Source of the DNA: an uncultured Candidatus Saccharibacteria bacterium
GTDB lineage: Bacteria > Patescibacteriota > Minisyncoccia > Phycocordibacterales > UBA9973
Direction: 5' to 3'
Assembly (NCBI GenBank): GCA_964631935.1
Contig: CAZWAV010000001.1
Location: 211,460-275,459, forward strand
DNA: 64,000 nt
Every line of letters begins with the position of its first letter. The stretch's first letter is position 1. Positions 11,566 through 38,301 of the stretch are shown here, in pieces. A program made the position numbers and the translations under genes. The notes beneath the pieces were generated by a model. That model was not told the origin of the DNA, searched no databases, and saw nothing but the letters and a program-made list of their open reading frames with translations.

Positions 11566-11566
11566 G

Positions 11567-12316: not shown

Positions 12317-12318
12317 AG

Positions 12319-15900: not shown

Positions 15901-16436
15901 AACTCCTTTGTAACTTTTTCTACTGAAAATAGTTCTTTTAATTCTTTAAAATTTGTAAATTTAAGAGAAGCTACTTGTTGTAGAAAAGTAACATTTTTCT
16001 GTTGTTTAGATACAAAATAAGTGAATCTCCTGAAAGTGCTGTAATTTACTTTTGTACCAACATAATCAGCATAAATCAAACTCATACGAAACCCTCCCTT
16101 ACTATCGTAATAAACAAAAATCCCTGCTCTAGCTTTTGGGAAGTTCTTTAATATTTTTTTCCCTAAATCGTATTGAGTTTTTCTACTTGCTCGTTCATTT
16201 AATGGTGTAAGTGACCGTGAACAAATAACTATAATATTTACATTATCTTCAAGATCGAAATCCCCTAGCTGTGAAAAATCAGTAAATTGTTTGTCGTTAA
16301 ATGTTGGAAGTGGGTTTTGTTGAACTCTAAAAAAATCATGACTCTTAAGTATCTCTGCTAATGAAGCAGCAGAGAAATCATCAATTAGTTTTTGGAATTT
16401 AACCTGGCTCATAATATTACATATTTCTATTTTCAA
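12975..16436 (-). CDS. Large gamma-class N6-adenine DNA methyltransferase (Eco57I/type IIG/PglX/DrmMI-like), 1153 aa
   Basis: Motif I VDPAVGSGAFPMGML followed downstream by motif IV FDIVIGNPPYI; ~400-aa N-terminal and ~350-aa C-terminal extensions of unknown role. Confidence 0.85.
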   Translation of the reverse strand: MKIEICNIMSQVKFQKLIDDFSAASLAEILKSHDFFRVQQNPLPTFNDKQFTDFSQLGDFDLEDNVNIIVICSRSLTPLNERASRKTQYDLGKKILKNFPKARAGIFVYYDSKGGFRMSLIYADYVGTKVNYSTFRRFTYFVSKQQKNVTFLQQVASLKFTNFKELKELFSVEKVTKEFFKNYRDLFIEILEDFEDNNEFQNIVVKTGISTTPDFVKKLMGQIVFLYFVQKKGWLGVRPNENWGTGDQGYLRSLFETCRKTNQNYFDDYLEPLFYEALAEKRGEDDFFEQLNCRIPFLNGGLFESVYDWKNTEINIHNEVLGKLLDFFDQYNFTVDENTPSDQEISVDPEMLGKIFENLLEVKDRKDKGAFYTPREIVHYMCRESLIQHLVSEDTAPEDRIRKLFENKDTDLSILVDDYKKTEIIKRMQELKDIAEKVDVSLRNVKIVDPAVGSGAFPMGMLNEISSVRHYLNTNFLHKTNDTGKELSLYDIKKETLENCIYAVDLEPGAVEIAKLRFWLALIVEFESNDPKIAPPVLPNLDYKIMQGNSLLEEYEGVKLFDENIIKTIDTDKEKQIEDLKKKQSVLQKEYFRLNADNKLTPIKKVELDTEAKSIHDQLKKLTKTEKVNIEVSGLFDFDKHKESKFKADQLKLLQKHFFETNKKDKKESIKKEIERLEWELIEATLIEQGKTSELSKIEGFKKSKIKPFFLWKLHFADVFEQKGGFDIVIGNPPYIRHRDLPKKFKDELCSNYDVGNTTADIYCYFYELGYNLLSEYGTLTYITSNKWMRSRYGDKLRLLLKNKTKIEVLIDLGGGQFETATVDTNIIIIRKGGQNGEHYLKYGQRIDDILYKMKQSDLGENSFALIDQSVANLKASIEARGLKLKDWTSIKINYGILTGRNDTKNSSGEKEGVFIVDEAKRNELIKNDKNSEVFIKPILRGKDVAKYSYDWQHKYLITTYYGTHKIIDKYPAIKKHLSHYKEILESRAQVIRGDHNWIELDQNPSERYLKEMEQNKIIYPNINKEFAAAYDDSGVLVNQKCFFIIGNNLKYLLGILNSKLNFFYFKLIGASLGNAGYDISKIFVNELPIIPAETNLEIKKAIEGLVNQVIDHKKQNKDNDTKKLEHQIDELVYKLYKLTPEEIEIIENSSKK

Positions 16437-19400: not shown

Positions 19401-19779
19401 TTTTACGAATTTGTAGCTGGCCACTATTAATCAAATCAATAAAGAATAATATTTTCTTCTCAAAATCTTCATTATCAAATTCATCACTAGCTAATGAACT
19501 TTTTACAGAACCAAAGTAATTTTTAATTTTCTCTCTATTTGTTAAGTTGTTGCTATTTTCTGAATACTCGAAAAGACCGTGAACCCCCTTGTCTGCATTA
19601 AGTCCAACTAACACATCCATTTTAATATCAGGACGATCTTTTATGCTTTCATACAATTCAGCAATTCCTGAAAAATAGAAAAAACCTACAAGAAACTTCA
19701 GTTCTTTGCTGTTTTCGATTAATTCAACAAGTCGCTTTTTTAGATCCTTCCCTGCCTCATTCGTTATAAAATTAGTCAT
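16417..19779 (-). CDS. PLD-family nuclease domain fused to SNF2-family helicase, 1120 aa
   Basis: N-terminus: NHAKLYIFKIKD...ITGSSNLT (single HxK...GSxN PLD motif). Helicase: VIVVDEAHRFRN (DEAH), ILLTATPFNN, C-terminal helicase motifs (VGTDKISEGFNL, QRVGRINRIGQ). Confidence 0.85.
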   Translation of the reverse strand: MTNFITNEAGKDLKKRLVELIENSKELKFLVGFFYFSGIAELYESIKDRPDIKMDVLVGLNADKGVHGLFEYSENSNNLTNREKIKNYFGSVKSSLASDEFDNEDFEKKILFFIDLINSGQLQIRKTLEPNHAKLYIFKIKDQLATIRKSVFITGSSNLTRSGLSNQHEFNVELGDFGTEDADKYFDELWESSIKITETEQYKQELINLLKQETLIAEPTPFEAYASILQHYLDAQSQVEVSSSIKELLEKNGYITYKYQLDAASQALGMIEESGGAIIADVVGLGKSVITGMVAKQLGKRGLVICPPGLVGDDNKSSGWKKYLEDFELYGWEVRSCGLATLRSTLKFVQERNDIDVIVVDEAHRFRNQDTEAYELLSMICKNRKVILLTATPFNNSPADIFALLKLFIVPGKSQLTIAPNLSIEFRDYKNMFKKLSDINKDYNSTDKNKREKAISTYATMFGSAVVETGKVNGRIKYISNRIRQIIEPVVIRRNRIDLKNDPEYSKEVKDLSKISDPREVYYELSKEQSDFYDRVISDYFGEDGLFNGAMYRPSVYEKGRAEGERIIGEEENLEYISQTNLFHFMRRLLIKRFESSFNAFAESINNFYAITCKSLDFIEKTGGKFTLDRKLIEAISDGDEDEVIECMVKMSESIEDLVNDKKSKKYNIDSFKEKDKFLGDLQKDKELFEKIKTELDELKLVENDPKVLALSHRIEEILNTKENKGEPDRKIVIFTEYADTAKHVFESLDKKFKGKVLSVYGSTSTGRIDEVLKNFDASQKKQEETYSILVGTDKISEGFNLSKSGAVVNYDIPWNPTRVIQRVGRINRIGQKVFENLYIYNFFPTIKGSEYVKNREIAENKMFMIHSTLGEDSKIFSPDENPSAAGLFTKLQQNPEALEVESFITTIRRLYYEIKTKHPEVIEKIKKLPARIKVAKKFNENDLLVFIRKGRPLFVRGMINDEKEVRDLNLEEVIERIKTTPDEKSIPRSSMFWENYETSKIIEQRTQNSSQMAIETKSFNNLNSLLQNIESFNEDVQDFAPFVRTLLDDLTDYQTLSTFTLRRLADMPTIENSKDSSKIILETLSELKNNLGFDYLDKIKSATKLNTQEVVIAVENRNM

Positions 19780-23139: not shown

Positions 23140-23302
23140 TTATACGGCTTATTCTAGCATTTTATGTATATTTTGGTATACTAGCCGAGTAAATGCCGGA
23201 GTGGGTCAAAAACAAACTGCTTTGTTTTTGACCAGAACGAAAGTTCTGTGGGCCGCCACTTTAGGCACATAAACAGAGAAATACGCAGTATATTTCTCAT
23301 AT

Positions 23303-23384
23303 GCCGGAGTGGCGGAATTGGTATACGCGCGCGACTCAAAATCGCGTCTCGCAAGGGATGGAGGTTCAAGTCCTCTCTCCGGCA
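23303..23384 (+). tRNA. tRNA-Leu (anticodon CAA), type II with long variable arm
   Basis: Acceptor GCCGGAG/CTCCGGC+A, anticodon stem CGCGA/TCGCG, loop CTCAAAA, long variable arm, T-loop GGTTCAAGTCC. Confidence 0.85.
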
Positions 23385-23397
23385 CAAATCAAATTAT

Positions 23398-24096
23398 ATG
23401 AATTCACAAAAAATCGTTTTTTCTAAGAAAATTATTGAGAAAGATTGTGAGGACATATTTTATAAAGTACTAGAAAAATTCCCGGAGTTTAATAGTGTAT
23501 GTATTTTTGTTAAAAAAATACCATTCTATGGAATACAACATACTTTGCGATCATACGCACCACTACTTTCACTCGCAAATCCAAAACGAAGAAGAGTATA
23601 CCCTATAGTGATAAATAGCAACTCATATACTCCTATATTTTTTGAAAATCTTACCGAGGAAGAAAAGACAGGGGCAATGGCGCACGAATTTGGCCATACA
23701 CTTGAATATACACGCCTCAGTTCAGTAAAGATTGTTCGAATGACTTTACTATTTTTACTATCAGAAAAATTTGTAAAGAAGTTTGAAAAACGAGCCGATA
23801 TGATTGCGATAGAACGTGGATTTGCTAAAGAGTTACTGGCATTTAAAAAAAGAATTTTTAAAGAAGAAAACATAAAACTCTCTGGGTATAGGAGCTTTAT
23901 TTATATGGGTCCAGAAGAAGTTGAAAAGATATTAAAAAACGAAACGAATTTTGATCGCAAAAATCATTCTTATAATAAAATAGTATGGTACTCCTCATTT
24001 CATAAGTTGAGAAGCTTCTACACTTTCTTTCCAAGTATTTGGCAAATGATAATACTTATCTACTTTAAGAAAGTCCACAGGACAGGCCACTTTTAA
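23398..24096 (+). CDS. HExxH-motif protein (putative zinc metallopeptidase-like), hypothetical
   Basis: MAHEFGHTLEY motif; track ORF 23248..24096 starts inside/ahead of tRNA-Leu, so I place the start at Met 23398 (MNSQKIVF...). Confidence 0.5.
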   Translation: MNSQKIVFSKKIIEKDCEDIFYKVLEKFPEFNSVCIFVKKIPFYGIQHTLRSYAPLLSLANPKRRRVYPIVINSNSYTPIFFENLTEEEKTGAMAHEFGHTLEYTRLSSVKIVRMTLLFLLSEKFVKKFEKRADMIAIERGFAKELLAFKKRIFKEENIKLSGYRSFIYMGPEEVEKILKNETNFDRKNHSYNKIVWYSSFHKLRSFYTFFPSIWQMIILIYFKKVHRTGHF

Positions 24097-25156: not shown

Positions 25157-26671
25157 ATGAAACAAAGCGACCAGGAGAAGATAGGATTCTTTATTAAGGA
25201 ATTGCGTGAGAAAAGAGGCCTTACACAAGGTGCATTTGCCAAGGAATTAGGCACTTCACAGAGCGCTATAGCGCGCATGGAGAAGGGTGAGCAGAACTTC
25301 ACTACCGAGCTATTATCCAAGATAAGTACAGTCCTAGAGCATCAAATAGTCTCTATAAATAACAACAACTCTATAGACTTCCAAATCGTGGGTGGTAAAA
25401 AGCTACACGGTAGTATTACAACAAGTTTTTCTAAAAATGGCTCTGTTGGTCTTCTTTGCGCTACCCTACTTAATAAAGGTATGACAACACTTCACGGCAT
25501 CGCCCGAATTGAAGAAGTATATAGAGTTATAGAAATACTTGAGAGTATAGGTGTGAAAATCGTTTGGACAAATCAGAACACCGTAGAAGTAACTCCACCA
25601 AAAGTTTTCAAACTTAAAAATTTAAACGTAGAATCAGCAATCAGAACAAGATCAATAATAATGCTCATAGGTCCACTTATCCATTTACTTCCTTCATTCT
25701 CAATCCCTCACGCACAAGGTTGCAACTTGGGTAAGCGTACAATCTCTGCTCACAGATATGCCCTTGATGAATTGGGTGTAAAAATTAAAACTACAAATAC
25801 AACATACGACATAACTGTAAATAATTTAAAGCCTGCCGATATCGTAATGTATGAAGCTGGAGACACAGCTTGCGAGAACATACTCATGGCAGCAGCAAAA
25901 ATTGAAGGCAAGACAGTGATTGAATGTGCCAGTGGTAACTATATGGTGCAAGAGGTTTGTTTCTTCTTGCAGAAATTGGGAGTGAAAATCGAAGGCATCG
26001 GAACAGGCACTCTTATTGTGGAAGGAGTGAAAGATATAAATATGGCCGTTGAATATCACAACAGTGAAGATCCTATCGAATCTATGATGTTCATCTCGGC
26101 AGCTATTGCTACTGATTCAACTCTTACTATAAATCGCTGTCCTATAGACTTCCTTACTCTTGAACTATACAGACTAAAAAAGATGGGATTGAAATATAAA
26201 GTTTTGAAAAAATATGTATCAAAAAATGAAAAAACAAAACTCATAGATATAGAAATACTTCCGAGTATATTTAAAGCACCTTACGACAAAATTCACGCTA
26301 ATCCTTATCCAGGAATAAATATAGACAACCTTCCCTTCTTCGTCCCTATTGCAGTCCGAGCTACTGGTACAACTCTTATACACGATTGGTTTTACGAGAA
26401 TCGTGCTATATATGCAACTGAGCTCAACCGCCTTGGAGCCAATGTCACCCTGGCAGATCCACACCGCGTCTATATTACCGGAGGTACCCCCCTTACAGCA
26501 GCTCAAATAGTATGCCCTCCAGCGCTTAGACCATCTATGGTTATACTTATATCTATGATGGCTGCAGAAGGTACTTCAATACTTCGTAACGTCTATATGA
26601 TCAACCGCGGATATGAAGATGTCGCAGCTCGCTTGAACTCCATCGGTGCAGATATTACAATACTCAAGTAA
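25157..26671 (+). CDS. murA: UDP-N-acetylglucosamine 1-carboxyvinyltransferase with N-terminal XRE-type HTH domain (fusion)
   Basis: Residues ~10-60 LRE KRGLTQGAFAKELGTSQSAIARMEKGEQNFTTELLSKISTVL (XRE HTH); remainder is an EPT-fold MurA-like enzyme (VGGKKLHGSITTSFSKNGSVGLLCATLLNKG...); 504 aa. Confidence 0.8.
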   Translation: MKQSDQEKIGFFIKELREKRGLTQGAFAKELGTSQSAIARMEKGEQNFTTELLSKISTVLEHQIVSINNNNSIDFQIVGGKKLHGSITTSFSKNGSVGLLCATLLNKGMTTLHGIARIEEVYRVIEILESIGVKIVWTNQNTVEVTPPKVFKLKNLNVESAIRTRSIIMLIGPLIHLLPSFSIPHAQGCNLGKRTISAHRYALDELGVKIKTTNTTYDITVNNLKPADIVMYEAGDTACENILMAAAKIEGKTVIECASGNYMVQEVCFFLQKLGVKIEGIGTGTLIVEGVKDINMAVEYHNSEDPIESMMFISAAIATDSTLTINRCPIDFLTLELYRLKKMGLKYKVLKKYVSKNEKTKLIDIEILPSIFKAPYDKIHANPYPGINIDNLPFFVPIAVRATGTTLIHDWFYENRAIYATELNRLGANVTLADPHRVYITGGTPLTAAQIVCPPALRPSMVILISMMAAEGTSILRNVYMINRGYEDVAARLNSIGADITILK

Positions 26672-27350: not shown

Positions 27351-28139
27351 TTATATTTTCCTCACTTCCAAACACATGAAAATGGGAATTTCTTTACGAG
27401 CGGTATCTTCAGATATTTGTCTTGGACCTTTTTGACTTTTCTTATGAGATATCCATTCTTCGAGTCGAGCGACAGCAAAACCATTCTTTGATAATAACTT
27501 TACGTAGTATTGGAGTGGTCGATGGAAAGAAATAGTTTTTACTTTCTTCTTTATATCTTTCTCCCCTGGAGTCATGTCGATAGAAATCTTTGATTCAGAT
27601 AAATATTTACCAACAATGCGATACTGAACTCCATCTTTGAAATACCAATCACTTCCTTGTGGCACACGAAATGCTGGGTGATTAATCACGAGCACAATTC
27701 GCCCATTATCCTTGAGTATTCTATTACACTCAGCAAATACACCATTTACATTTTCAATATTCTGAATTGCTAATACTATGACCACTGTATCTATTGATTT
27801 ATCTTTTATGAATTGCGCTTGATCGGCTTTTGATACATAAAATTTTATATCTTTAGGTAACGTTTCAGTTGCTATACTTACTAATTTCCTTGATAAATCT
27901 GAAGCGACAACAGAGGCACCATTACGAAAAAGTAGATCTGCAAAATAACCCTGTCCACAAGCAAGATCATAGACCTGTTCCCCTTTTTTTAGATTTAGAA
28001 TACGCAATAAGTTTGGTGCTATGACTTTGGATTGATAGCTATCATTGTCTGTTGTTAGTAATTCATCATACCATCCAGCTACCTTGTTCCATGAGGTATC
28101 ATCTGGTTTTTTTGATGGAGAATTTTTCGCTTTATTCAT
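27351..28139 (-). CDS. Class I SAM-dependent methyltransferase
   Basis: VYDLACGQGYFADLL (motif I), 262 aa. Confidence 0.75.
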   Translation of the reverse strand: MNKAKNSPSKKPDDTSWNKVAGWYDELLTTDNDSYQSKVIAPNLLRILNLKKGEQVYDLACGQGYFADLLFRNGASVVASDLSRKLVSIATETLPKDIKFYVSKADQAQFIKDKSIDTVVIVLAIQNIENVNGVFAECNRILKDNGRIVLVINHPAFRVPQGSDWYFKDGVQYRIVGKYLSESKISIDMTPGEKDIKKKVKTISFHRPLQYYVKLLSKNGFAVARLEEWISHKKSQKGPRQISEDTARKEIPIFMCLEVRKI

Positions 28140-28177: not shown

Positions 28178-29590
28178 CTATTCCATGATAAGCATATCTT
28201 CAGCTGTCAGATTTTTTTCTTCCTTACTCAGACTTGGGTTTCTCCTATTTAAAATAAAGATCATGAGAGAAGCTACGAAAATAAGGCAAATAAATCCGAG
28301 CCATGCGAGAGCTGAAGTAGAAATTGAAATGGGAGATCCTTCGGCGCTTGCACCGAGGTCATCTAAATTTATAACAGAAGATTCTGGGGTTGTTGGTTTT
28401 AGATCATTTGTTGGTTCTAAAATATTATTTTCTGCTGGAGTAACATATCTTGTACTTTTCACAGATGATGGGTATATCGCTAACGTTTCTCTTTTAGAAT
28501 TAAACAATGTGACATATTTTAAATCTTCACCACTAAAAATGGTAACTCTTGGAGAAAATTTTATCTTCTTACTTGGTAGCAAAATAGTTCCATCAGGTAT
28601 AGTGAATAGATGGATACCTCCTTGTATTATCCATTTTGATAAATCAATTTCAAGCGGTGACTTATTCTCAATCTCTACAAACGGATCATTCGTATTCCCA
28701 ACAGAGCTTATCGTTACATCCCTAGGTATTACTTTTATTGTAAGGCGATCGGTGGCATCAATATCTTTATTGCCATATACGCGATAATAAGAAAGGGTCA
28801 CTACGTATTCACCTGGGTACATATAAGTATATTGGAATGGATCAGATTCTTGTTGTTCTTTTGTCATACCATCACCAAAATTCCAAACGAACTTCCCCAT
28901 ACGAAGTGGTTCTTTCCCATACCCGGCCGTCGTAGCACTGAAGTCTAAAGGAAGTCCTGCGACAGCAGTATTTTTTGCAACAATATTTGTAATTATTTTG
29001 GGAACTTCTATTTCTTTTTTCTTAACTTTAGGGGGAGCTTGTGTCGTAGTGGTAGATGTATCGTCTCCAGTATCTTCTACTCCAGAACCAGCTTTATTCT
29101 CGGCTCCTGGTGTTGGCTTCGCGCTTTGCCACGAGCTACCAATTTTCTGAAGTGAGTCACCGTTGCCTGCTCCGCCCATACTTGAAGTAAAAGATACTTC
29201 ACTTATTATATTTTGATTTGGATCTTTCAGAGCTATTGTTTCTCCGTCATTATTTAACCCAGTCCAACTACTATCAAATAGTAATCCTCCAAAATCAGGT
29301 TGGTCTGCTCTGAAATTTGTCACATTCTGAGCGATAATTGCATATCCACCGGCGGGTACCTGAGGGGCACCTTGAGGAACTAGGGCATGCTTTGTATTGT
29401 CGGTAAATAAATACCAGGTCGATAAATCTGCTGAATCAGATCCAGTATTTTGAACTTCAACCCATTCCCGATTTGTATCTGTACCATCGAGATCATACAT
29501 GATCTCTGTAATTTCAAAACCCGCTTGAGCTACATGAACCCTGGCCCAGAATATTAATAGAGGAAGAATCCAATATTTTATATTTTTCAT
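28178..29590 (-). CDS. Secreted/surface protein with lamin-tail-like and PKD-like domains, C-terminal TM anchor
   Basis: Signal peptide MKNIKYWILPLLIFWARVHVAQA; EVQNTGSDSADLSTWYL (LTD-like); FVWNFGDGM...YTYMYPGEYVVTLS (PKD-like); hydrophobic C-terminus. Confidence 0.55.
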   Translation of the reverse strand: MKNIKYWILPLLIFWARVHVAQAGFEITEIMYDLDGTDTNREWVEVQNTGSDSADLSTWYLFTDNTKHALVPQGAPQVPAGGYAIIAQNVTNFRADQPDFGGLLFDSSWTGLNNDGETIALKDPNQNIISEVSFTSSMGGAGNGDSLQKIGSSWQSAKPTPGAENKAGSGVEDTGDDTSTTTTQAPPKVKKKEIEVPKIITNIVAKNTAVAGLPLDFSATTAGYGKEPLRMGKFVWNFGDGMTKEQQESDPFQYTYMYPGEYVVTLSYYRVYGNKDIDATDRLTIKVIPRDVTISSVGNTNDPFVEIENKSPLEIDLSKWIIQGGIHLFTIPDGTILLPSKKIKFSPRVTIFSGEDLKYVTLFNSKRETLAIYPSSVKSTRYVTPAENNILEPTNDLKPTTPESSVINLDDLGASAEGSPISISTSALAWLGFICLIFVASLMIFILNRRNPSLSKEEKNLTAEDMLIME

Positions 29591-29600: not shown

Positions 29601-31880
29601 TTATTCTAATACTTTGCGGAGCACATCTTCAGGTACTTCTTTTGGTGTTTGTCTCTTTTGCCATGTGTCAGTCTTTGGTACTGATTCTTCTTTTTTTATT
29701 GGATTTGGGGTTGGAGTTGATTGTGGCTGAGCTATAGGCTGTGTATTTTGCTTTACTTCTTCTTTTGGTTTTTCTATAGGTGTAGTCGTGTTGTGTTGTT
29801 CTATGTTTGTCTGTGAAATAAAGATTGTTTGGTTGACCGGTGTAGGATTGGTGCTTTCGATTGGCTTAGCGGGAATAACTGGCACTACTTCTACCCTTGA
29901 TTCTATTTTATCTTCTGCTTTAGGTTTTGGAATTATAGGCGTAGCCGCTTGAGGTGTTGATGTAACTTTTGCTAACAAATCTTTCAAGGATGCTTTCTTT
30001 TCTTCAGAAGCTTCTTTTGTAGGTATTGGTATAGGTACTGTTGCGTTTGGACTACTTTCTGATTTCTTAAGAATTGATAGAGACACAGGAGCAGGTGTAG
30101 GTGCTTTTACTTCAGCAACTTTTATTGGTGTATTATTAGGCTTTTTATTTTCTGCATCTATTTTCTCAAGCAACCCTCGCAGGAGTGGCGAAGGGCCAGA
30201 ATGCTTTTTCTCTGGTGGTTTGTAGGGAGTCCTATTATTATTTGTATTAATATTTGGATTTTGTGGTCTTGGTATATTTGTATTATTAAAATTTCTTTGT
30301 GGAGGTCTTGTGTCTACGGGCTTTGGGCCAGATGCCTGGCTGACATATTCAATACCCAAAGCAGCGAGTGGCGCAGTAGAAACTCTTTCGTCTTGGCGAG
30401 CTGATCTTGATGCAACGAAACCACTCTGAGGTTTTAATTCCCCACTCTTTATCTTGAACATACAGTCCTTACAATAAACTGGTCTACCCTCTTTTGGCTC
30501 GAAAGGTACCATGGTAACCTTGCCACAATTTGAACATTCAGCCTTGTACTTTGCTTCACCTTCGCCAACCTGAAGCATTCCACTCCATTTTGATATTTCT
30601 GCTTCGACTTCTTCACGGGGACGAGCGTATAAACTACGAGAAAGTTCTATGATTCTCTCCTTTACGCCTGCGGTCGGATCAATCTTCATAGGCGGTAGTG
30701 TGCTTGCTGAGAATGGACGGCTTGTTACTCCATCTATCATAAGCTTGAGATATACATGATAGTTTGGTAAATTCACCAAATCTTGAGCAGTGAATTCTGG
30801 TTCAAATTCTTTCTCCATAAAATCTGCATCATCAGCTCCTACGCGGAATATTATCATCGTACCGACGTTACCGAAAACCGCATCACGTACAGCTGTACCA
30901 TTTTCATTGGAAAGCTGGGCAGTATATTGGTGGGCAATTATTAGATTGAGACGGTATTTACGCGCCTCGGAAAGAATGTTTGCAAATGAATCAGTAGCAA
31001 AGTTTTGGAATTCGTCTACGTACAGATAGAAATCTTTACGTTCATCTTCAGGTATACGCACACGCTCCATGGCCGCAAGCTGGATCTTGGTAATGATCAT
31101 ACCTCCAAGTAATGCTGAGTTATCTTCACCAACGCGACCCTTCGAAACGTTCACGAGGAAAATTTTCCCTTCGTTCATTATCTTAAATATATCGATTGTA
31201 GATTTCGATTGGCCGACGACGTTACGGATAATAGAAGTAGAGAGGAATTGACCGACTTTGTTTTGAATCGGAGCGATAGCTTCATTTCGGAATTGTTCAC
31301 GCCATTGTTCATATTCGTGGACCCAGAATGCTTTGACTACTGGATCTTTCAAATTGCTAATTATCATCTGACGATAGTCTTTATCAACAAGAAGACGAGG
31401 AATACCTAGAAGTGTGGTACCCGGAGTATCGAGTAGCGCAAGAATAGCATTATTGAGAATATATTCCATACGAGAACTCCAAGCATTTGCCCAGATCTTG
31501 GTAAATATTCCCATGAGGCCAGATGCCACCAAGTGCTTGTACTTAGGATCATCAAGAGCTATGACATTGAAGCCGACATTGAAATCAATATCAGCTGGAT
31601 TGAAGTAAATGACATCTTTAGCTCGATGGTCTGGAATGAGATGAAGGATTTCTTCGACGAGCTCGCCGTGCGGATCAACCACACAGACACCTTCGCCATT
31701 ATTTATATTTTGAACAATAAGATTAGATAGGAGGACAGATTTACCAGTACCTGATTTACCAAGCACGTACATATGCTGGCGTCTATCCTTACGCTTTATG
31801 CCGAAAATAGTATTCGTACTGCGAAAGTTAGTCCTGCCAAAGTAGGTTATATCTCGGTTGTGTGGAATTTCGTTGTCCAT
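29601..31880 (-). CDS. VirD4/TraG-like (T4SS coupling-protein-type) P-loop ATPase, soluble, with C-terminal zinc ribbon and long P/T/N-rich tail
   Basis: GKSGTGKS Walker A, VVDPHGE, DEFQNFAT, LIIAHQ; CSNCGK...CKDC zinc ribbon; ~290-aa low-complexity tail. Confidence 0.65.
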   Translation of the reverse strand: MDNEIPHNRDITYFGRTNFRSTNTIFGIKRKDRRQHMYVLGKSGTGKSVLLSNLIVQNINNGEGVCVVDPHGELVEEILHLIPDHRAKDVIYFNPADIDFNVGFNVIALDDPKYKHLVASGLMGIFTKIWANAWSSRMEYILNNAILALLDTPGTTLLGIPRLLVDKDYRQMIISNLKDPVVKAFWVHEYEQWREQFRNEAIAPIQNKVGQFLSTSIIRNVVGQSKSTIDIFKIMNEGKIFLVNVSKGRVGEDNSALLGGMIITKIQLAAMERVRIPEDERKDFYLYVDEFQNFATDSFANILSEARKYRLNLIIAHQYTAQLSNENGTAVRDAVFGNVGTMIIFRVGADDADFMEKEFEPEFTAQDLVNLPNYHVYLKLMIDGVTSRPFSASTLPPMKIDPTAGVKERIIELSRSLYARPREEVEAEISKWSGMLQVGEGEAKYKAECSNCGKVTMVPFEPKEGRPVYCKDCMFKIKSGELKPQSGFVASRSARQDERVSTAPLAALGIEYVSQASGPKPVDTRPPQRNFNNTNIPRPQNPNINTNNNRTPYKPPEKKHSGPSPLLRGLLEKIDAENKKPNNTPIKVAEVKAPTPAPVSLSILKKSESSPNATVPIPIPTKEASEEKKASLKDLLAKVTSTPQAATPIIPKPKAEDKIESRVEVVPVIPAKPIESTNPTPVNQTIFISQTNIEQHNTTTPIEKPKEEVKQNTQPIAQPQSTPTPNPIKKEESVPKTDTWQKRQTPKEVPEDVLRKVLE

Positions 31881-31930
31881 AGATTAGTTTTATTATACCC
31901 TATCTATATAAAAAAACGAGTGATTATTCC

Positions 31931-32515
31931 CTATTTTGTATGTACTCCGTGAGTCATCCGATATTCCATGATCTGACTAAAGATAACCCCGAAGAAACAG
32001 ATGGCAATATACCCAAGCATAGCTTGCTGGTAAGATATTGGAATACTTTTTAGCATGCCCAATACGAAAGATATAAGCCAGGAAATTAAAGATACAGCCC
32101 CCATCGCAAAAGATATTTTTCTAAATTTAACATACTTATGGTGAACATTATTATCTGTAAAATCTATTTTCTTTAATGCTGGATGTATAAACCGCCAAAA
32201 GGCATAGCCATTCAATATTATAATACCTACAATAGAAATCTTGACTAGAAATTTAGTTGAACTTGCATACTTTATAGGATTTGATAGAAATAATCCGAGA
32301 CCACTAAGAGATATGAATAGCAGACTTGCCCATACAATAACAGAAAGAACTTTTAGTGTTTTGCTTTCTATTGCATTGATTTTTTTATTCTTTAGATAAA
32401 CATTAAATAATATATCTGATATAAGAGCCGCACCCATACCAAATATAACAGCTAAGACATGAATAATAAGGGATATAATTTTATATTCGCCAAAAAAAGC
32501 TATTGTATCTTCCAT
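31931..32515 (-). CDS. Polytopic membrane protein, hypothetical
   Basis: 194 aa, ~5 hydrophobic helices. Confidence 0.55.
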   Translation of the reverse strand: MEDTIAFFGEYKIISLIIHVLAVIFGMGAALISDILFNVYLKNKKINAIESKTLKVLSVIVWASLLFISLSGLGLFLSNPIKYASSTKFLVKISIVGIIILNGYAFWRFIHPALKKIDFTDNNVHHKYVKFRKISFAMGAVSLISWLISFVLGMLKSIPISYQQAMLGYIAICFFGVIFSQIMEYRMTHGVHTK

Positions 32516-32550
32516 ATTTCACTATTATACACGAGTTTTAAATTAATTCA

Positions 32551-34305
32551 TTAAAATACTTCTTTTTTATAACAATCTTCGCAGTAAATATTATCTATAC
32601 CACTATCATACGCGGTTTCAAACACATTAGGGCATCTGGTATTTCCATGAGATGAATGTTCTTCAATATTCTCATATTTAGCATTAACAGAATGTGTTCC
32701 GTTGCATAAACATTGCGACTTTTGCAATCGTGGAGGAACCATGAATTTCTGACGTCTAGCAAATCTACAATCAAAGCAATGGCGTGGAAGTGGCAGATTT
32801 GAATTTTTTAAGAATTGGAATTCATCAAAAATAATACGGTATGCTTTTTTGCAATTCAAACATTCGATAAACTCTTTAGTTATATCAGAACTTGTATCAT
32901 TTATAAATTCCGGTAAATCAAGAGAAGAAATAGTAGTCTCGTATAATCGCTTATTTTGCTCTCGCCATATAAAACCTTCATTTTCTACCTCTTCTTTATT
33001 AGAAGGAAATTGATCATTAAGCAGCGTCTCATTGTATGCGAACGGAGACATCTCTACCGGGAAAAATTCTCCATATTTATATATATTACCTCTTTTGTCT
33101 ACATATGGTACATCATTCATTTGCTGTTTAATTTTAGAAACAAGATTAATATATTCTTCTTTTGAATACTGTATATTAAAAATACAATACTGCTTATCCT
33201 TCATACCAACACAACCAAAACAATTTCTTGAACGCCTCATGTTTATACAATACTCGAGATCCTGACATGCAGGCCAACACTCAAAACAAAATTTAATATT
33301 ATCTGCATACTCACCCACAATCATGCATTCATATATCTGAGAAGCACTAACTCCCCAACATGTATAATCATAAGAATTGCTCGCTCCGCCAAAAGGAAGG
33401 TCTTGGACATATTTTAGATTCTCCCCCTTTTTAACGATATAACTATATTTGACATTTTTACTATCTTTTATGTCTTCTCCTAGGACATCATAATTACGGA
33501 ATCCTAGCATATATTTAATGGGAAATTTTTTCCAAAATTCCTCTGCTTGTTTTCTTGCATTAGAAAATCCTTCCCATGTATCAAGCTTCATTGATTTTAT
33601 CTTTTCTAGGTATTCTTCTTTTGAATATTCTTCGTTAAAAATTTTGTATGTTGAATTCCTAAGATTGACGCAACCAAAGCAATTTGTACACCCCACACAA
33701 TTCTTTGAAAACCATACATCAACACAATTTTCAGACATAATAGAACCAACTGTGTGGTAGCTTTTATCCACTCTTACAGAGTCATAACAAAATTCAGAAT
33801 CATAACAACTCGTAGTATCAAAGCATGTCTTTAAATTACTTGCATTGCAACAATATGCAGAATCTTCTAGAAATGTTGCATTGAAACATAGATATGTATT
33901 TTTCATATCATCACACATGTTGGAGTAGTCAGAATTTACACAGCGTTGCATTGATTTTGCTGGATATGGTATAGAGTGAAATAGATCATTAAATTGATTA
34001 AAAAAAGGAACAGAAAAATTGTATTCTCTGCCATATAAAAGAGAATCCCAATTATCACTTTCCCAATATGAATGTTCATATAATGGAAGGTTTACTTGTG
34101 GTGGAATTCCAGTAAATATCTCTTTATTAGTTACGGCATCTACTCCTCGGAACAAGTGTCGCACATTACGCCAGATTGCTCTTCTTTTATATCTACAGTC
34201 GGGACAAAATGTCGGGGCAGGGACTTTCATTTTTTCATAGAACGAAAAATCATCTGGTTCAATATTGAAATTATTCTTACAGTTTTGGCAGGTTCGAGTT
34301 TCCAT
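32551..34305 (-). CDS. Cys-rich protein, paralog A (zinc-ribbon termini + internal CxxCxxCxxC repeats), unknown family
   Basis: 584 aa; N-terminus TCQNCKNNFNIEPDDFSFYEKMKVPAPTFCPDCR; internal CVGCTNCFGCVNL...IFNEEYSKEEY and CFGCVGMKDKQYCIFNIQYSKEEY repeats; C-terminal CLNCKK...CFDCRF, CEDCY. Confidence 0.6.
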   Translation of the reverse strand: METRTCQNCKNNFNIEPDDFSFYEKMKVPAPTFCPDCRYKRRAIWRNVRHLFRGVDAVTNKEIFTGIPPQVNLPLYEHSYWESDNWDSLLYGREYNFSVPFFNQFNDLFHSIPYPAKSMQRCVNSDYSNMCDDMKNTYLCFNATFLEDSAYCCNASNLKTCFDTTSCYDSEFCYDSVRVDKSYHTVGSIMSENCVDVWFSKNCVGCTNCFGCVNLRNSTYKIFNEEYSKEEYLEKIKSMKLDTWEGFSNARKQAEEFWKKFPIKYMLGFRNYDVLGEDIKDSKNVKYSYIVKKGENLKYVQDLPFGGASNSYDYTCWGVSASQIYECMIVGEYADNIKFCFECWPACQDLEYCINMRRSRNCFGCVGMKDKQYCIFNIQYSKEEYINLVSKIKQQMNDVPYVDKRGNIYKYGEFFPVEMSPFAYNETLLNDQFPSNKEEVENEGFIWREQNKRLYETTISSLDLPEFINDTSSDITKEFIECLNCKKAYRIIFDEFQFLKNSNLPLPRHCFDCRFARRQKFMVPPRLQKSQCLCNGTHSVNAKYENIEEHSSHGNTRCPNVFETAYDSGIDNIYCEDCYKKEVF

Positions 34306-34306
34306 A

Positions 34307-36007
34307 TTAGTTTACTTCTTGCTGATAGCAAGTCTCACAGTACACAATGTCAGGCTGGGTTGATTCATAGCTTGTCTCAAATTCATTTGTACAACCAGAA
34401 TTCATACACGAACGGTGATATAGTTTAGGTTTGTTTATAAACTGGTAGCGATCTAAAAATCTACAATTATGGCATTTGTGGGGCAAAGGTATGCCTATAC
34501 GTTTATAGAATTGTAATTCAATAGGGACTATTCTATATGCACGCTTACAACTCTCGCAAGCAATAACTTCTTTAGTAATATCGTCTGGCACATCGTTAAT
34601 TAAATCAGGTAAATCTACTCCTTTCATCGTTGTTTGAAATTCGCGTGCATTTGGTTCACACCATAGAAATCCTTTTTCTTTTGCTTGCTCAGAATTTAAT
34701 GGCACATAATCTTGGGCCAAGCTTTCGTTATACGCAAGTGGCGAAAATTCAGATGGAAAAAATTCTCCGTATTTATATTCCCTACCCAATGAATCAAAAT
34801 ATGGCATCTCATTCATATGTTCTATAATTTTATCCCGTAACTGGAAATATTCTTCTTTTGTATATTGTTTATTGAAGATACAATATTGTTTCTTTTTAAG
34901 ACTTACACAACCAAAACAATTTGATGACCCTACGCAGTAACTACAGTATTCAAGGTCACGCGATTCTGCCCAGCAATTAAAACAATATTTAAGGTTATAG
35001 GAGCCTTCACCACAAGTTACGCATTCATATGCATTTTCGACTCCCATAAAAAGCTGATTACAGTCGTATGAATTAGCTGCTTTGAGAACGCTGATCTGGC
35101 AATATCGTAAATTTTCTCCTTCTTGTATCGAAACAGAATCTAAGACATTTTTGGAATCACTTATTCGCTCTCCAGTACAGTTTAGGTTTCTTATGCCATG
35201 ATAATACTTTACTGGGAATTTTTGCCAAAATTCTAAGACTGCAGGCCATAATTCCTTAATTGATTCATATGATCCAAGATTTAATTCAGAGATTCTTTTA
35301 TCGTATTCTTCTTTTGATAATGGCTCATTAAAAAAATAATTGGACTTACCCTTTAAATTGACGCACCCGAAACAATCTGTACAACCACGAAGACCTTTTG
35401 AGAACGAGACATCTACACAACTCTCGCAGTCTAGAGAATAAAATGTTCTGTAGCTTTTATAAACCATTACATCCTCATAGCACAGCTCGTCATCTATTAC
35501 TTCATGAGAGTCAAATGAATCCTTCATATTTGTGGCTTTGACTAAATATGCAGAGTTTTCAACAAAGTCTGAATCAAAACATAAGTATGCATTACGTAGT
35601 CTTCCTGCCTCATTGCAATAATCTGAATTAATCATGAATCCTGCGGATGATTTTGCGGGTAGAGGAGTCAAAGACAACAAATCATAGAATTGTTTAAAGA
35701 ATGGTTTAGAGAAATCATACTCTACTCCGTAAGAAAGAGGATTCCATTCATCTCCATGCCAGTAACTATTTTCATAGGTATGTAAATTTGCCTCGGCAGG
35801 AAAACCCGAAAAGGAATCTTGCCCTGTATGAGCGTCTTTCCTACGAAATAGATTACGTTCATTTCTAAATGATAGGCGGCGAACCATCCTACAATCCGGG
35901 CACCATGTCGGAGGTGGTACTTTCATCTTCTCATAGAATGAAAAATCATCTGGTTCGATGGTAAAATTATTTTTGCAATTCTGGCAGGTTCTATTTTCCG
36001 GATTCAT
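34307..36007 (-). CDS. Cys-rich protein, paralog B (tandem duplicate of 32551..34305)
   Basis: 566 aa; N-terminus TCQNCKNNFTIEPDDFSFYEKMKVPPPTWCPDCR nearly identical to paralog A; same internal and C-terminal Cys patterns; 1-nt gap to paralog A. Confidence 0.6.
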   Translation of the reverse strand: MNPENRTCQNCKNNFTIEPDDFSFYEKMKVPPPTWCPDCRMVRRLSFRNERNLFRRKDAHTGQDSFSGFPAEANLHTYENSYWHGDEWNPLSYGVEYDFSKPFFKQFYDLLSLTPLPAKSSAGFMINSDYCNEAGRLRNAYLCFDSDFVENSAYLVKATNMKDSFDSHEVIDDELCYEDVMVYKSYRTFYSLDCESCVDVSFSKGLRGCTDCFGCVNLKGKSNYFFNEPLSKEEYDKRISELNLGSYESIKELWPAVLEFWQKFPVKYYHGIRNLNCTGERISDSKNVLDSVSIQEGENLRYCQISVLKAANSYDCNQLFMGVENAYECVTCGEGSYNLKYCFNCWAESRDLEYCSYCVGSSNCFGCVSLKKKQYCIFNKQYTKEEYFQLRDKIIEHMNEMPYFDSLGREYKYGEFFPSEFSPLAYNESLAQDYVPLNSEQAKEKGFLWCEPNAREFQTTMKGVDLPDLINDVPDDITKEVIACESCKRAYRIVPIELQFYKRIGIPLPHKCHNCRFLDRYQFINKPKLYHRSCMNSGCTNEFETSYESTQPDIVYCETCYQQEVN

Positions 36008-36446
36008 TTGTTTTATTTAAAATTGAAGAGTGTAAAGTATCCCCTTTGTATGGCTTACCATATACAATCTCTATTTCAGGCAAAATACCATTCTCCATAG
36101 CTTCATTTATATTATCAAAAAGTGAGTCCTGGTCATATCCAAGATAAATAATGTTTGGTTTTATTTCTTTTACTATATTATATTTCCCCTCTTCTAGGTC
36201 ACCTAAGAATACAGAATCTATCTCTGGTATTTCTAACAGTGCTTTAATGCGATCAGCTTCATTGTTAATAGGAGGTTTTCTTTTTAAGGTATTTACTACA
36301 CTGTCTCTAGCGACTACCGCCACTAGTCTTTCCCCTTTTTCTTTTGCATCATGTATAAAAGCACGGTGTCCATCATGGATACCATCAAATACTCCAAAAA
36401 TTAAAACAGTTTGAGGATTCATTAGTGTATTTCTTTCATCATCCAC
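35991..36446 (-). CDS. Cytidylyltransferase-like nucleotidyltransferase (HxGH family)
   Basis: VLIFGVFDGIHDGHRAFI (GxFDxxHxGH), 151 aa, single-domain size. Confidence 0.7.
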   Translation of the reverse strand: MDDERNTLMNPQTVLIFGVFDGIHDGHRAFIHDAKEKGERLVAVVARDSVVNTLKRKPPINNEADRIKALLEIPEIDSVFLGDLEEGKYNIVKEIKPNIIYLGYDQDSLFDNINEAMENGILPEIEIVYGKPYKGDTLHSSILNKTNESGK

Positions 36447-36727
36447 TCTTTATAGGGATGGTTAATCCGGCGAACATCTACACCAGCAATCAATGGAATA
36501 CTGTATGTATGATTCTCGTTAATAATATTCGTTACGCTATCAAGCTTGGCCTCAAATGTTGTGATCAGAAGCATTGCTTGAGACACACACTGAAGACCTC
36601 CCTCCCAATTATAGCAAGATTTAATCGGCCAGAAATCCACACAGGCACCAATCTTTTGACCTATAATTATTGAACCTAGTTTCTCTGCTTCCTCCATGCT
36701 TTCACATGTCGTATATATAAACACCAT
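36422..36727 (-). CDS. cutA: Divalent-cation tolerance protein CutA
   Basis: 101 aa; VFIYTTCESMEEAEKLGSIIIGQKIGACVDFWPIKSCYNWEGG pattern typical of CutA1. Confidence 0.7.
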   Translation of the reverse strand: MVFIYTTCESMEEAEKLGSIIIGQKIGACVDFWPIKSCYNWEGGLQCVSQAMLLITTFEAKLDSVTNIINENHTYSIPLIAGVDVRRINHPYKEWMMKEIH

Positions 36728-36793
36728 AAAATATAAAGATTATTAGGCTATACTAAGTGGACCTTTATACTTTAAGTGTAGCACCCTAGTATC

Positions 36794-38272
36794 TTATATC
36801 AAGGGCTCGCTTGCTTTCTCTTCTACTGCTGGTTTAGCACCCTGATCACCATATGCTGAGTTCTTGCCTCCTGTAATTGCGGCCTTTTCTTGGGCCGAAC
36901 GGATGATAGTAGACTCTTCTTCTGCAATTAGTCTCTGGGCATCGCCTGCAGGTATGGCATATTGCCTGCGAGAAGCCTCAATGATGCGCTCTCGGTATGA
37001 AGGATGGGTCGCAGGAAGAACACGCAGAGTCTCTGCTGAGAATGGATCATAGCTTTCTCCATCTATTGTCATCTTTATATAAAATTCTCCGACTCCTAGA
37101 TTGATCATATCTTTCACATCAAAGATTGGAGCAAATTCTGGCTTGAGCTTTGTCGCATCATCACCTCCAACACGGAATGAGATGATAGAACCGACGTTAC
37201 CAAGCACTGCCTGCTGAACCTTTGGTAGAAGCTGGCCGATATATTGGTGAGCCACAGTAAGATTGAGTCCATACTTGCGAGCTTCAGAAAGAATGTTCTC
37301 AAATGTATCTGTAACTATATTTTGGAACTCGTCTACATATAAATAAAAGTCGTGACGATCTTTGGGATCAAGCTTGGCACGAGCCATACCTGCTTGTTTA
37401 ATCTTTGTTAGGAACATCGCACCAAAGAAAGATGAATTCTCTTCCCCTATTTTTCCTTTAGAGAGATTAATGAGAAGTATCTTCTGATCGTTCATTATCT
37501 TTTCGATATCAATCTTGTTTTCTTTCTGTCCGAAAATATTACGGAGCATTGGGTCAGACAAAAATTGTCCGAGTTTATTTACGAGTGGGATGATAGCATC
37601 CGTATCGAACTTCTCAGACCAATCAGCGAATTCTATTGCCCAGAATCTTTTAACCATGTCATCTTCAATATACTCGACAACCTTCTGACGGTAATTACGA
37701 TCAGTGAGCATAGAGATCATACCGCGCATAGTTGCATGAGGATAATCAAGAAGAGCAAGTGTTGTAAAACGAAAGACGTGCTCAAGACGTGGAGTCCAGT
37801 TCGCACCGAACTGCTTACGAAGAACCTCAATGAGACCTTGAGTCAACTGGTGCTTAAAAGTTGGATCAACGTTCGCGAGAGGATTGAATGATGATGGGAA
37901 ATCTATATCCCCGGGGTCAATGACACAAACATCATTAATACGATTCTCTGGAATGAAATTTAAAATATCTTCAATAAACTCTCCGTGTGGATCGATAATA
38001 CAAACACCACAACCATAAGCTATGTCTTGGCGAACCATAAGCTCTTGGAGCTTGGATTTACCGACACCAGACTTCCCTATAATATATAAATGTCTTCGGC
38101 GATCTATACGCTTTATACCGAAAACGAACTTCTTTTCTTCAAGAGAAGCTACGTAGTTTGTCCGGCCAATAAAAGAAACCTCACTCGGATCAGCTTGACC
38201 AAGAGTCGGTAAATCAGGAGGCGGAGGAGCATATTTTATTATTTGAATCTTGTTCGGTTTATCGAGCGCCAT
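36794..38272 (-). CDS. VirD4/TraG-like P-loop ATPase, paralog of 29601..31880 (no zinc-ribbon tail)
   Basis: GKSGVGKS, IIDPHGE, DEFQNIVT, LTVAHQ; 492 aa; same architecture as the other copy through the ATPase core. Confidence 0.65.
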   Translation of the reverse strand: MALDKPNKIQIIKYAPPPPDLPTLGQADPSEVSFIGRTNYVASLEEKKFVFGIKRIDRRRHLYIIGKSGVGKSKLQELMVRQDIAYGCGVCIIDPHGEFIEDILNFIPENRINDVCVIDPGDIDFPSSFNPLANVDPTFKHQLTQGLIEVLRKQFGANWTPRLEHVFRFTTLALLDYPHATMRGMISMLTDRNYRQKVVEYIEDDMVKRFWAIEFADWSEKFDTDAIIPLVNKLGQFLSDPMLRNIFGQKENKIDIEKIMNDQKILLINLSKGKIGEENSSFFGAMFLTKIKQAGMARAKLDPKDRHDFYLYVDEFQNIVTDTFENILSEARKYGLNLTVAHQYIGQLLPKVQQAVLGNVGSIISFRVGGDDATKLKPEFAPIFDVKDMINLGVGEFYIKMTIDGESYDPFSAETLRVLPATHPSYRERIIEASRRQYAIPAGDAQRLIAEEESTIIRSAQEKAAITGGKNSAYGDQGAKPAVEEKASEPLI

Positions 38273-38301
38273 ATATAAAACTCATTGTACCAAATACATA
38301 C

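Follow-up and report, generated by a model that had tools for sequence, protein, structure and literature searches.

A block of genes on the minus strand of a 64-kb stretch of DNA from an uncultured bacterium of the candidate phyla radiation (CPR; contig CAZWAV010000001.1, the whole stretch being called the window below) encodes, at 29601-38272, two paralogous ATPases of the VirD4/TraG kind, here ATPase A and ATPase B, and between them two large proteins rich in cysteine, Cys-rich 1 and Cys-rich 2. We find that the linkage of such ATPases to arrays of Cys-rich genes is real and recurrent among related genomes, that it has apparently not been described so far, and that the core of the block is a conserved module specific to the Paceibacteria rather than a seven-gene machine. 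The reading that we favour, tentatively and with somewhat less than even confidence, is a generic one in which the ATPases are an exapted pair of motors and the Cys-rich proteins are their clients.

Linkage of the ATPases to arrays of Cys-rich genes

Gene order was compared over 159 loci in total, 80 species seeded on ATPase A and mapped by tblastn (Set A) and 79 loci collected from metagenomes with the Cys-rich family as the seed (Set B), the latter with 42-82% identity to Cys-rich 1. All of the sampled genomes are from related lineages, and the counts given here are therefore counts of non-independent events. The prevailing order in Set A is Nramp(-) / ATPase A - (CutA - nucleotidyltransferase) - Cys-rich x n - (membrane protein) - ATPase B - LTD - methyltransferase. 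In 52 of the 60 informative loci a gene for ATPase B can be found no more than 10 kb from ATPase A, downstream of it in 46 and upstream in 6. The number of Cys-rich copies between the two varies, with none in 19 of the 46 loci, one in 10, two in 12 and three in 5, and whole loci hold up to 6 copies; 116 of the 118 Cys-rich genes of Set A are on the strand of ATPase A.

The same linkage is recovered when the search starts from the other partner. Cys-rich genes in Set B nearly always stand in tandem, with as many as 8 copies in an array (L150, L113). No other gene family neighbours them nearly as often as the ATPases, which occur in 26 of the 79 loci and in 18 of the 33 that are at least 12 kb long. 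ATPases account for 37 of the 555 non-Cys genes of Set B (6.7%), where chance would give about 0.2-0.3% for a CPR genome that has two such genes among some 700-1,000, a size that is itself an estimate. Among the genes immediately flanking a Cys-rich gene they are again the top recurring family (25 of 178), followed by CutA with 8. The association also outlasts rearrangement of the gene order, since the arrangement ATPase A...ATPase B is replaced by ATPase B - Cys(n) - CutA - ATPase A - Cys(n) in several loci (L095, L114, L116, L133, L137, L156, L159) in which the arrays are kept.

The original prediction, which had proposed that the ATPases are partnered with zinc-ribbon-rich proteins, thus receives support from both sets: with ATPase B beside ATPase A in most informative loci and Cys-rich neighbours recurring in Sets A and B, the ATPases of related genomes are not scattered singletons that lack conserved Cys-rich neighbours. 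The idea of a seven-gene unit kept in relatives fares less well, and only the ATPase/Cys-rich linkage survives from it; the unit is not obligate, because Cys-rich copies are missing from many of the A-to-B intervals and the small membrane protein of the block is found in only 11 of the 80 Set A loci.

The two ATPases

ATPase A (36794-38272, minus strand, 492 aa) and ATPase B (29601-31880, minus strand, 759 aa) are 46% identical over 428 aa (E 2e-139). The motifs on which their identification had been based, GKSG[VT]GKS, DPHGE, DEFQN and AHQ, are present in both, and their residues are invariant among homologues; in ATPase A the Walker A motif is GKSGVGKS and the Walker B motif DEFQN. Both proteins exceed the Pfam gathering thresholds for DUF87 (the HerA central domain), T4SS-DNA_transf, TrwB_AAD_bind and TraG-D_C (accessions PF02534, PF10412 and PF12696 among them), ATPase B matching TrwB_AAD_bind with E 4.6e-14. 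With the curated NCBIfam models of coupling proteins, in contrast, both fall far under every cut-off, the best scores being 50 bits against a cut-off of 366 for SXT_TraD and 47 against 250 for conju_CD1115. A hydropathy scan with a 19-residue window gave no transmembrane-like segment above threshold in either protein.

Sequence searches of the PDB with ATPase A alone returned nothing, and with a profile the match to TrwB was limited to the P-loop. An AlphaFold2 model of ATPase A (pLDDT 69, pTM 0.72), compared with the PDB by Foldseek, has as its top match TrwBdeltaN70 (E 1e-5, probability 1.0, TM-scores 0.49/0.55 over 422 columns), followed by a distant second match to the HerA subunit of Nezha (HerA-Sir2; E 0.014). 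The model, which is of moderate confidence, predicts helices at residues 137-261, between Walker A and Walker B. The ATPases therefore share with the type IV coupling proteins (T4CPs: TrwB of R388, VirD4, TraD and TraG) the P-loop domain of the FtsK/HerA superfamily with its Walker A and B motifs, as well as a helical insertion matching the all-alpha domain and the TraG-D_C region, and TrwBdeltaN70 is the best structural match. They differ from the T4CPs in lacking the N-terminal transmembrane domain, in being only 13-14% identical to TrwB and under all NCBIfam T4CP equivalog cut-offs, and in that they are encoded by a duplicated, extremely conserved pair of chromosomal core genes and not by mobile elements. 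No VirB4, relaxase, other component of a type IV secretion system (T4SS) or competence gene was found among the Pfam-scanned open reading frames (ORFs) of the 64-kb window. The description of the two proteins as soluble VirD4/TraG-like paralogs is upheld on all three grounds, namely the T4CP domains, the TrwBdeltaN70 fold and the missing membrane segment. HerA-type ATPases (HerA-NurA, and the Nezha/Sir2-HerA and DUF4297-HerA systems) have DUF87 in common with them, but the structural and profile matches to HerA are much weaker than those to TrwB, and the block contains no NurA, Sir2 or DUF4297 partner gene.

ATPase A is 80-94% identical across the 80 species. Its median identity to the window protein, taken over the fetched loci that carry each gene, is 86-87%, compared with 83% for UDG, 81% for UvrA, 76% for MurA, 65% for UvrC, 64% for Ddl, 61% for Alr and 56% for MurB. 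Judged by these identities, ATPase A is under very strong constraint and appears to evolve more slowly than the housekeeping genes that adjoin it.

The two paralogs end differently. ATPase B continues beyond the ATPase domain into a treble-clef zinc finger of the form CxxC-x17-CxxC (30453-30548, minus strand, residues 445-476), which scores 56.2 bits with TIGR04272 (cut-off 36) and 53-59 bits with PF23477 (27), and then into a low-complexity tail of about 280 aa with conserved short motifs. This finger-plus-tail architecture is found in 61 of 65 full-length B-type homologues, and the finger in none of 97 A-type homologues. The A-type proteins end in EPLI, seen in 83 homologues, and ATPase B ends in EVPEDVLRKVLE, an instance of the conserved B-type ending EVPE[DE]VLRK[VI]LE. 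Each paralog thus has a conserved terminal peptide of its own, which suggests that these peptides are tethered docking motifs, by analogy with the tail of TraD, which binds TraM. At the other end of ATPase B, the public gene call (P0241) is 723 aa long, 36 residues shorter than the ORF of the window, as fits a start at Met37; such a start would remove an N-terminal segment that aligns with residues 31-60 of ATPase A, and the longer ORF of 759 aa is probably the correct one.

That CPR genomes carry about two orphan homologues of coupling proteins is known from a survey by Quinonero-Coronel et al. 2025 (PMC12102498). There, 5,713 VirD4-type homologues are reported in 2,918 of 3,035 Patescibacteria genomes, only 148 of the 5,713 genes being near virB4; exaptation of the VirD4-like genes, in the authors' words, "cannot be ruled out", and in S. 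epibionticum the VirD4-type homologue is non-essential whereas the T4SS genes are essential. Given their near-universal distribution at about two per genome, the ATPases of the window almost certainly belong to the surveyed gene set. The passages of the paper that were read do not describe the pairing of A with B, the missing transmembrane domain, the split N-terminal domain (below), the finger and tail of ATPase B or the Cys-rich arrays. Nor were the A/B pairing, the split, the B finger and tail or the arrays described in anything that our literature search returned.

A split relative of a phage protein

The strongest sequence relationship of either ATPase is to a family of phage proteins, phrog_5156 (E 2.3e-51 for ATPase A and 2.9e-62 for ATPase B), and covers only the C-terminal half of the family profile, at about positions 393-817 of 824. 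The family includes gp156 of Bacillus phage G, a protein of 826 aa whose gene adjoins one annotated as "VirB-like" and which is 27.6% identical to ATPase A over 86% of the latter, together with hypothetical proteins of SPO1-like Bacillus phages and of Microcystis phage Mwe-JY31. The phage proteins are single chains of about 825 aa with an N-terminal domain of about 390 residues that is absent from both ATPases of the window. They also lack a zinc finger or tail of the ATPase B type, and no Cys-rich neighbour was present in the two phage contexts inspected.

The missing domain is encoded separately in more distant Paceibacteria loci. There a protein of about 450 aa (cluster c15), usually with an N-terminal hydrophobic anchor and belonging to no Pfam or NCBIfam family, is encoded directly 5' of an ATPase gene, or 5' of a Cys-rich gene that is itself followed by the ATPase; it was found in 12-13 loci (L089, L090, L094, L095, L100, L101, L114, L116, L120, L127, L156 and L157, with a fused form in L152). 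A c15 profile aligns with residues 25-313 of phage G gp156 (hhalign 97%, E 7e-11), and 6 of 7 c15 members match the N-terminal part of phrog_5156, the domain to which c15 is homologous. The fused version in L152 (12633-15374) joins c15 and ATPase in one chain of about 910 aa and lies next to a Cys-rich pair, and in L090 and L157 Cys-rich genes are inserted, with short gaps, between c15 and the ATPase. Because c15 matches the N-domain of the gp156 family and the two halves occur fused in L152, the soluble ATPases are best seen, from sequence comparison, as motor halves cut loose from a protein of the gp156 type, the N-domain of which is now encoded by a gene of its own.

Two further observations concern these proteins. 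A 74-aa protein with two transmembrane segments (cluster c56) is encoded 5' of c15 in four loci. Homologues of the soluble type of ATPase, 28-54% identical and 360-726 aa long, are encoded on 11 predicted viral contigs from IMG/VR (L162-L172), none of which has a Cys-rich or c15 neighbour.

The Cys-rich family

Cys-rich 1 (34307-36007, minus strand, 566 aa) and Cys-rich 2 (32551-34305, minus strand, 584 aa) contain 33 and 35 cysteines respectively and are 50% identical over their full length. Cys-rich 1 begins with a zf_Tbcl-like finger, followed by two Cys-rich, beta-rich modules, each closed by a CFGC...IFN..KEEY cap and a helix, a second zf_Tbcl-like finger (476-528) and a terminal finger of the form Cx4C-x17-CxxC (528-566). 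The two zf_Tbcl-like fingers are internal duplicates (hhalign 99.2%); the N-termini of the window proteins score 21.0 and 21.4 bits with zf_Tbcl (PF13451), below its gathering threshold of 24, and that of the homologue P0119 reaches 27.8. The terminal finger is related to the finger of ATPase B (hhalign 95.1%, E 3e-8). Homology of the N-terminal finger to that of ATPase B is not supported (hhalign 15%); only the terminal one matches. Zinc binding has been measured for the CxxC-x17-CxxC type of domain in small proteins of Methanosarcina (M. mazei; PMC12704099), and a distant member of the Cys-rich family is labelled "CxxC-x17-CxxC domain-containing protein" in one source. The known finger proteins of the TIGR04272/PF23477 and PF13451 types are small and stand-alone or carry the finger as an appendage, whereas in the Cys-rich proteins the fingers frame a scaffold of about 570 aa with two more Cys-rich modules of no known fold.

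Beyond the fingers the family stands apart. The Cys-rich proteins have no Pfam, NCBIfam, PADLOC or PHROG family at normal thresholds, a sequence search of the PDB gave no relative, and the AlphaFold2 model of Cys-rich 1 (pLDDT 79, pTM 0.83, with the beta-rich Cys modules only at pLDDT 55-67) had no fold match among PDB structures and matched viral structures in zinc-ribbon sub-domains only. No transmembrane-like segment or Sec signal was seen in the hydropathy profiles, and the C-terminus is formed by a structured zinc finger and an acidic tail. An exhaustive search of 1.84 billion cluster representatives (50% identity) returned 3,608 clusters at E<=1e-3, and 1,402 when the limit was set to E<=1e-30; almost all are 550-600 aa long. 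The named members are all from the CPR (Nomurabacteria, Paceibacterota and Peregrinibacteria); no relatives were found in the viral contigs of IMG/VR. Our searches of the literature for the Cys-rich family and for DUF87 in the CPR found nothing relevant.

An alignment of 289 members shows a scaffold of fixed length with a median pairwise identity of 41%, in which the conserved cysteines fall into groups at 8/11/36/39, 206/209/212/215, 367/376, 484/487/512/515 and 534/539/557/560 and the variable segments are at 121-200 and 241-360. When 292 members were divided at 55% identity or more they formed 129 subfamilies, and not one of 323 within-locus pairs shared a subfamily. Recent tandem duplication as a source of the arrays is thereby ruled out, and by these identities the copies of an array are anciently diverged paralogs. 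The commonest subfamily (22 loci) includes Cys-rich 1, and Cys-rich 2 is a member of a rare one (2 loci), whose only other fetched locus is L096. Cys-rich 2 lies in a trough of G+C content, 0.315 over 32001-34000, against 0.36-0.41 in the neighbouring genes; because of this trough and its rare subfamily, Cys-rich 2 may be a more recent acquisition.

Other genes and the extent of the block

The seven minus-strand genes from which the block was first described are all present in the ORF listing. The remaining three are CutA (36422-36727, 101 aa), a nucleotidyltransferase (35991-36446, 151 aa) and a membrane protein (31931-32515, 194 aa, five hydrophobic segments); overlaps occur at 36422/36446 and 35991/36007, and the other gaps among the seven genes are 1-66 bp. 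The co-directional block does not end at 29601 as had been supposed, however. A surface protein gene (28178-29590, minus strand), outside the interval originally considered, begins 10 bp past ATPase B, and a class I S-adenosylmethionine (SAM)-dependent methyltransferase (27351-28139, minus strand; Pfam Methyltransf_11/25) follows as the final gene, giving nine co-directional genes. The only convincing terminator-like hairpins on this strand lie just outside the nine: one at 38332-38302, with a 13-bp stem followed by a T run, between an upstream 113-aa ORF and ATPase A, and one at 27319-27296, 3' of the methyltransferase. They are likely to be the 5' and 3' boundaries of the block respectively, and transcription probably reaches through the surface protein gene to the methyltransferase (27351); the overlaps, the short gaps and the restriction of such hairpins to the two ends give the nine genes an operon-like layout. 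A promoter scan of the block gave promoter-like sites more rarely than in shuffled sequence and is therefore uninformative, and an Rfam search gave no element within the block. By eye, an extended -10-like element, TGGTACAAT, can be read at 38284-38292 (minus strand), 11 nt 5' of the start codon of ATPase A; it was not listed by the scan because it has no -35 element, and it is put forward here as a candidate promoter that would give a near-leaderless ATPase A transcript.

CutA and the nucleotidyltransferase are frequent syntenic neighbours of the core. CutA matches PF03091 with 82.3 bits (positions 2-98 of 99) and misses the NCBIfam equivalog cut-off, with 80.5 against 120 bits; it is within the block in 45 of the 80 Set A loci, downstream of ATPase A in the clade of the window and directly upstream of it in the rearranged distant loci L095, L098, L111, L116 and L118. 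The nucleotidyltransferase (Pfam CTP_transf_like and FAD_syn; NCBIfam cyt_tran_rel, 47.9 bits against a cut-off of 27.7) looks from its sequence like an ordinary small adenylyl/cytidylyltransferase with an HxGH motif, either RibL/FAD-synthetase-like or RfaE-II-like. It is present in 42-44 of the 80 Set A loci, stands inside the Cys arrays of L058 and L146, and is probably a neighbour rather than a part of the system. The membrane protein belongs to no Pfam family and, given its scarcity in Set A, was rejected as a conserved component. The slot that it occupies, just 5' of ATPase B, often holds in relatives unrelated multi-pass membrane proteins of about 195 aa (clusters c10 and c12) on the opposite strand (L023:8677-9276, L050:15852-16445 and others).

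The surface protein combines lamin-tail domains (Pfam LTD, 82 bits) and a PKD domain with a signal-peptide-like N-terminus and a C-terminal transmembrane anchor at 419-451. An LTD gene lies no more than 700 bp 3' of ATPase B in 34 of 44 loci, and in 16-17 loci the methyltransferase follows it. The LTD protein is a clade-specific partner of ATPase B, the linkage being confined to the clade of the window. A theme of metal homeostasis, uniting CutA, the divergent Nramp gene and the Cys-rich proteins, was also considered and was dropped, the Nramp synteny being confined to the close clade.

Remainder of the window

Judged by the source names of near-identical homologues, the window is part of the chromosome of a CPR bacterium of the Paceibacteria/Nomurabacteria type. 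The block is flanked by housekeeping genes (MiaA, Alr, MurB, HTH-MurA, UDG, Nramp, Ddl, UvrABC, TGT, MreBC, ribosomal protein S2, EF-Ts and tRNAs). The MurA-like enolpyruvyl transferase (25157-26671, plus strand) is an unusual fusion with an N-terminal helix-turn-helix (HTH) domain of the Cro/C1 type (HTH_3, residues 13-60), kept in 21 related loci (cluster 6). A 282-aa ORF at 23248-24096 (plus strand), with no Pfam match, overlaps tRNA-Leu(CAA) at 23303-23385 (plus strand), and its 5' part at least is probably non-coding.

At some distance from the block, an integrated mobile element or restriction island occupies 3329-19779, where the G+C content falls to 0.27-0.31. Encoded in it are a large serine recombinase (3329-4978), a D5-type primase/helicase (5954-7576), an Eco57I/MmeI-type methyltransferase fusion (12975-16436) and a PLD-nuclease/SNF2 helicase (16417-19779), and also a DUF2726 protein and a PD-(D/E)XK nuclease. 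A LOOT RNA (RF03000, 90 bits against a gathering threshold of 46) lies in this region at 8175-8300 (plus strand). A SAM riboswitch (RF00162, 53 bits) at 10788-10901 (minus strand), directly 5' of a shortened MetK-like S-adenosylmethionine synthetase of 311 aa (9808-10743, minus strand), is likewise within the putative island, beside its methyltransferase genes.

Discussion

On the reading that we favour, the two anciently duplicated TrwB/VirD4-type motors would be coupling proteins exapted to work apart from a conjugative relaxosome; characterised members of the TrwB/VirD4 family are hexameric. The slot between and around the motors holds 0-8 anciently diverged, non-secreted multi-zinc-finger proteins of about 570 aa, and these may be interchangeable clients of the ATPase pair, serving either as adaptors that recognise its substrates or as its cargo. 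Driven by NTP hydrolysis, the motors would act at the membrane, on its cytoplasmic side, to translocate or remodel a macromolecule, be it nucleic acid or an unfolded protein.

Several points weigh against this reading. What the analysis shows is the homologies, the fold, the split of the gene, the synteny, the make-up of the arrays and the common finger; the physical interaction of the ATPases with the Cys-rich proteins, the nature of the substrate and the direction in which it would be moved are inferred. The confidence of the structural models is only moderate in important regions, ATPase A and the beta modules of Cys-rich 1. The finger that joins ATPase B to the Cys-rich family is weak evidence of partnership, since CxxC-x17-CxxC fingers are common in unrelated proteins. 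Besides the 19 A-to-B intervals with no Cys-rich gene, 27 of the 80 loci have none within reach, and no ATPase gene stands within 10 kb of several of the Cys arrays (L097, L113, L148), so that any partnership would have to be facultative or to act in trans. The descent of all loci from related lineages means that inherited synteny inflates the counts. Finally, neither the window nor any of the 80 closest loci yielded a c15 homologue, and a step of docking at the membrane is therefore without support for this genome, whose c15 partner, if it exists, would be encoded elsewhere.

Some of these points could be explained if there were no functional link at all, a rather unlikely but not negligible alternative in which the ATPases are independent core genes and the interval that adjoins them is a permissive hotspot for the Cys-rich family, CutA and others. 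The empty intervals, the arrays that stand without nearby ATPases and the mixed content of the interval (CutA, the nucleotidyltransferase, differing small membrane proteins, on either strand) are what such a hotspot would produce, and common ancestry among the sampled genomes can mimic linkage. It would not so readily account for an association that is kept through rearrangements swapping the order of A and B, for the almost invariable placement of the Cys-rich genes on the ATPase strand, for their insertion at short gaps between c15 and the ATPase, for the finger module common to the Cys-rich proteins and ATPase B, or for a frequency of ATPases near Cys arrays far above the chance expectation (itself based on an estimated genome size).

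The motors might instead be coupled to secretion, acting as soluble receptors or unfoldases for a distantly encoded Patescibacteria T4SS with the Cys-rich arrays as cargo or effectors delivered to the host, an explanation that we consider unlikely. It draws on the T4CP fold and domains of the ATPases and on the VirB-like gene that adjoins gp156, their closest phage relative; effectors are, moreover, often encoded beside virD4, as with the Beps of Bartonella and the X-Tfes of Xanthomonas, and the Cys-rich proteins come without a Sec signal in variable arrays of several paralogs. The ATPases lack the transmembrane domain by which they would dock to a T4SS, however, and the 64 kb contain no T4SS gene. 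The C-terminus of the Cys-rich proteins is a structured finger with an acidic tail rather than a disordered basic T4SS signal, proteins rich in structural zinc sites are poor substrates for unfolding, and paralogs that are ancient and conserved, with no recent duplicates within a locus, are not effectors of fast turnover. The T4SS of Saccharibacteria is essential for epibiotic growth, is encoded in a cluster in which neither a coupling protein nor a relaxase can be recognised, and may be an exporter of proteins (Wang et al., PMC10633639), and in the survey cited above T4CP homologues are near-universal yet encoded away from virB4 (PMC12102498); both facts speak for secretion coupling, but the latter source also reports the T4CP homologue of S. 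epibionticum to be non-essential beside essential T4SS genes. In its most specific form, to which we likewise give little credence, the Cys-rich arrays would be the missing substrates or adaptors of the essential, cargo-less Patescibacteria T4SS, selected and fed to it by the two soluble, split coupling-protein paralogs, or, in a variant, the ATPases, c15 and the Cys-rich proteins would make up a CPR translocation machine independent of any T4SS.

Motors of the TrwB, FtsK and HerA types pump DNA, and it is conceivable, though in our view improbable, that the block handles nucleic acid, with the ATPases as DNA or RNA translocases in uptake, processing or chromosome transactions, the Cys-rich proteins as specificity factors and the LTD/PKD protein capturing extracellular DNA (eDNA). 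Both ATPases match the "DNA-binding domain" of Pfam (TrwB_AAD_bind), and there are weak NCBIfam matches to the archaeal DNA-import ATPase CedD, but these and other matches to DNA translocases are far under their cut-offs. The several treble-clef fingers of the Cys-rich proteins could contact nucleic acid, yet zinc fingers also serve protein-protein contacts, and the conservation of ATPase A would fit a housekeeping role. LTDs occur in proteins of eDNA metabolism and in ComA-like proteins (PMC5118699), and the LTD gene often follows ATPase B, but only in the clade of the window. The block includes no ComEC, ComFA, nuclease or recombinase, and natural transformation in Saccharibacteria is ComEC-dependent and not essential (PMC12857230).

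Anti-phage defence, a context that the original prediction had raised and in which a HerA/VirD4-like ATPase would work with variable zinc-finger effectors or sensors, can be set aside as very improbable: the paralog arrays are variable and a separate mobile-element/restriction island lies at 3-20 kb of the window, but a scan with PADLOC-DB v2 gave only weak superfamily matches for the ATPases (mad8 at E 1e-11 and 3e-17, HerA, DndH and AbiO) and none for the Cys-rich proteins or the rest of the six other proteins scanned, the block has no nuclease, Sir2 or TIR-type effector domain and keeps its conserved place beside genes for peptidoglycan synthesis and repair, purifying selection acts on the Cys-rich paralogs, which are ancient, and ATPase A is more conserved than housekeeping enzymes such as MurA, UvrA, Ddl and MurB and, by the survey, near-universal (PMC12102498).

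The Patescibacteria make up a large part of bacterial diversity and live mostly attached to other cells; what is at issue is how they exchange macromolecules with their hosts. Their T4SS is essential in the one genetically tractable member, has no known cargo and has no coupling protein in its cluster. The locus described here shows that the near-universal orphan homologues of coupling proteins come as a conserved A/B pair of split, gp156-type derivatives, and it supplies candidates, in ATPase A, ATPase B, c15 and defined Cys-rich subfamilies, with which to ask what these motors act on. If the link proved to be syntenic only, the value of the finding would be more modest, namely that two protein families abundant in the CPR would be better annotated. 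If, on the other hand, the Cys-rich proteins were substrates or substrate adaptors of the T4SS, the set of ancient Cys-rich subfamilies that each lineage carries would mirror its host range.

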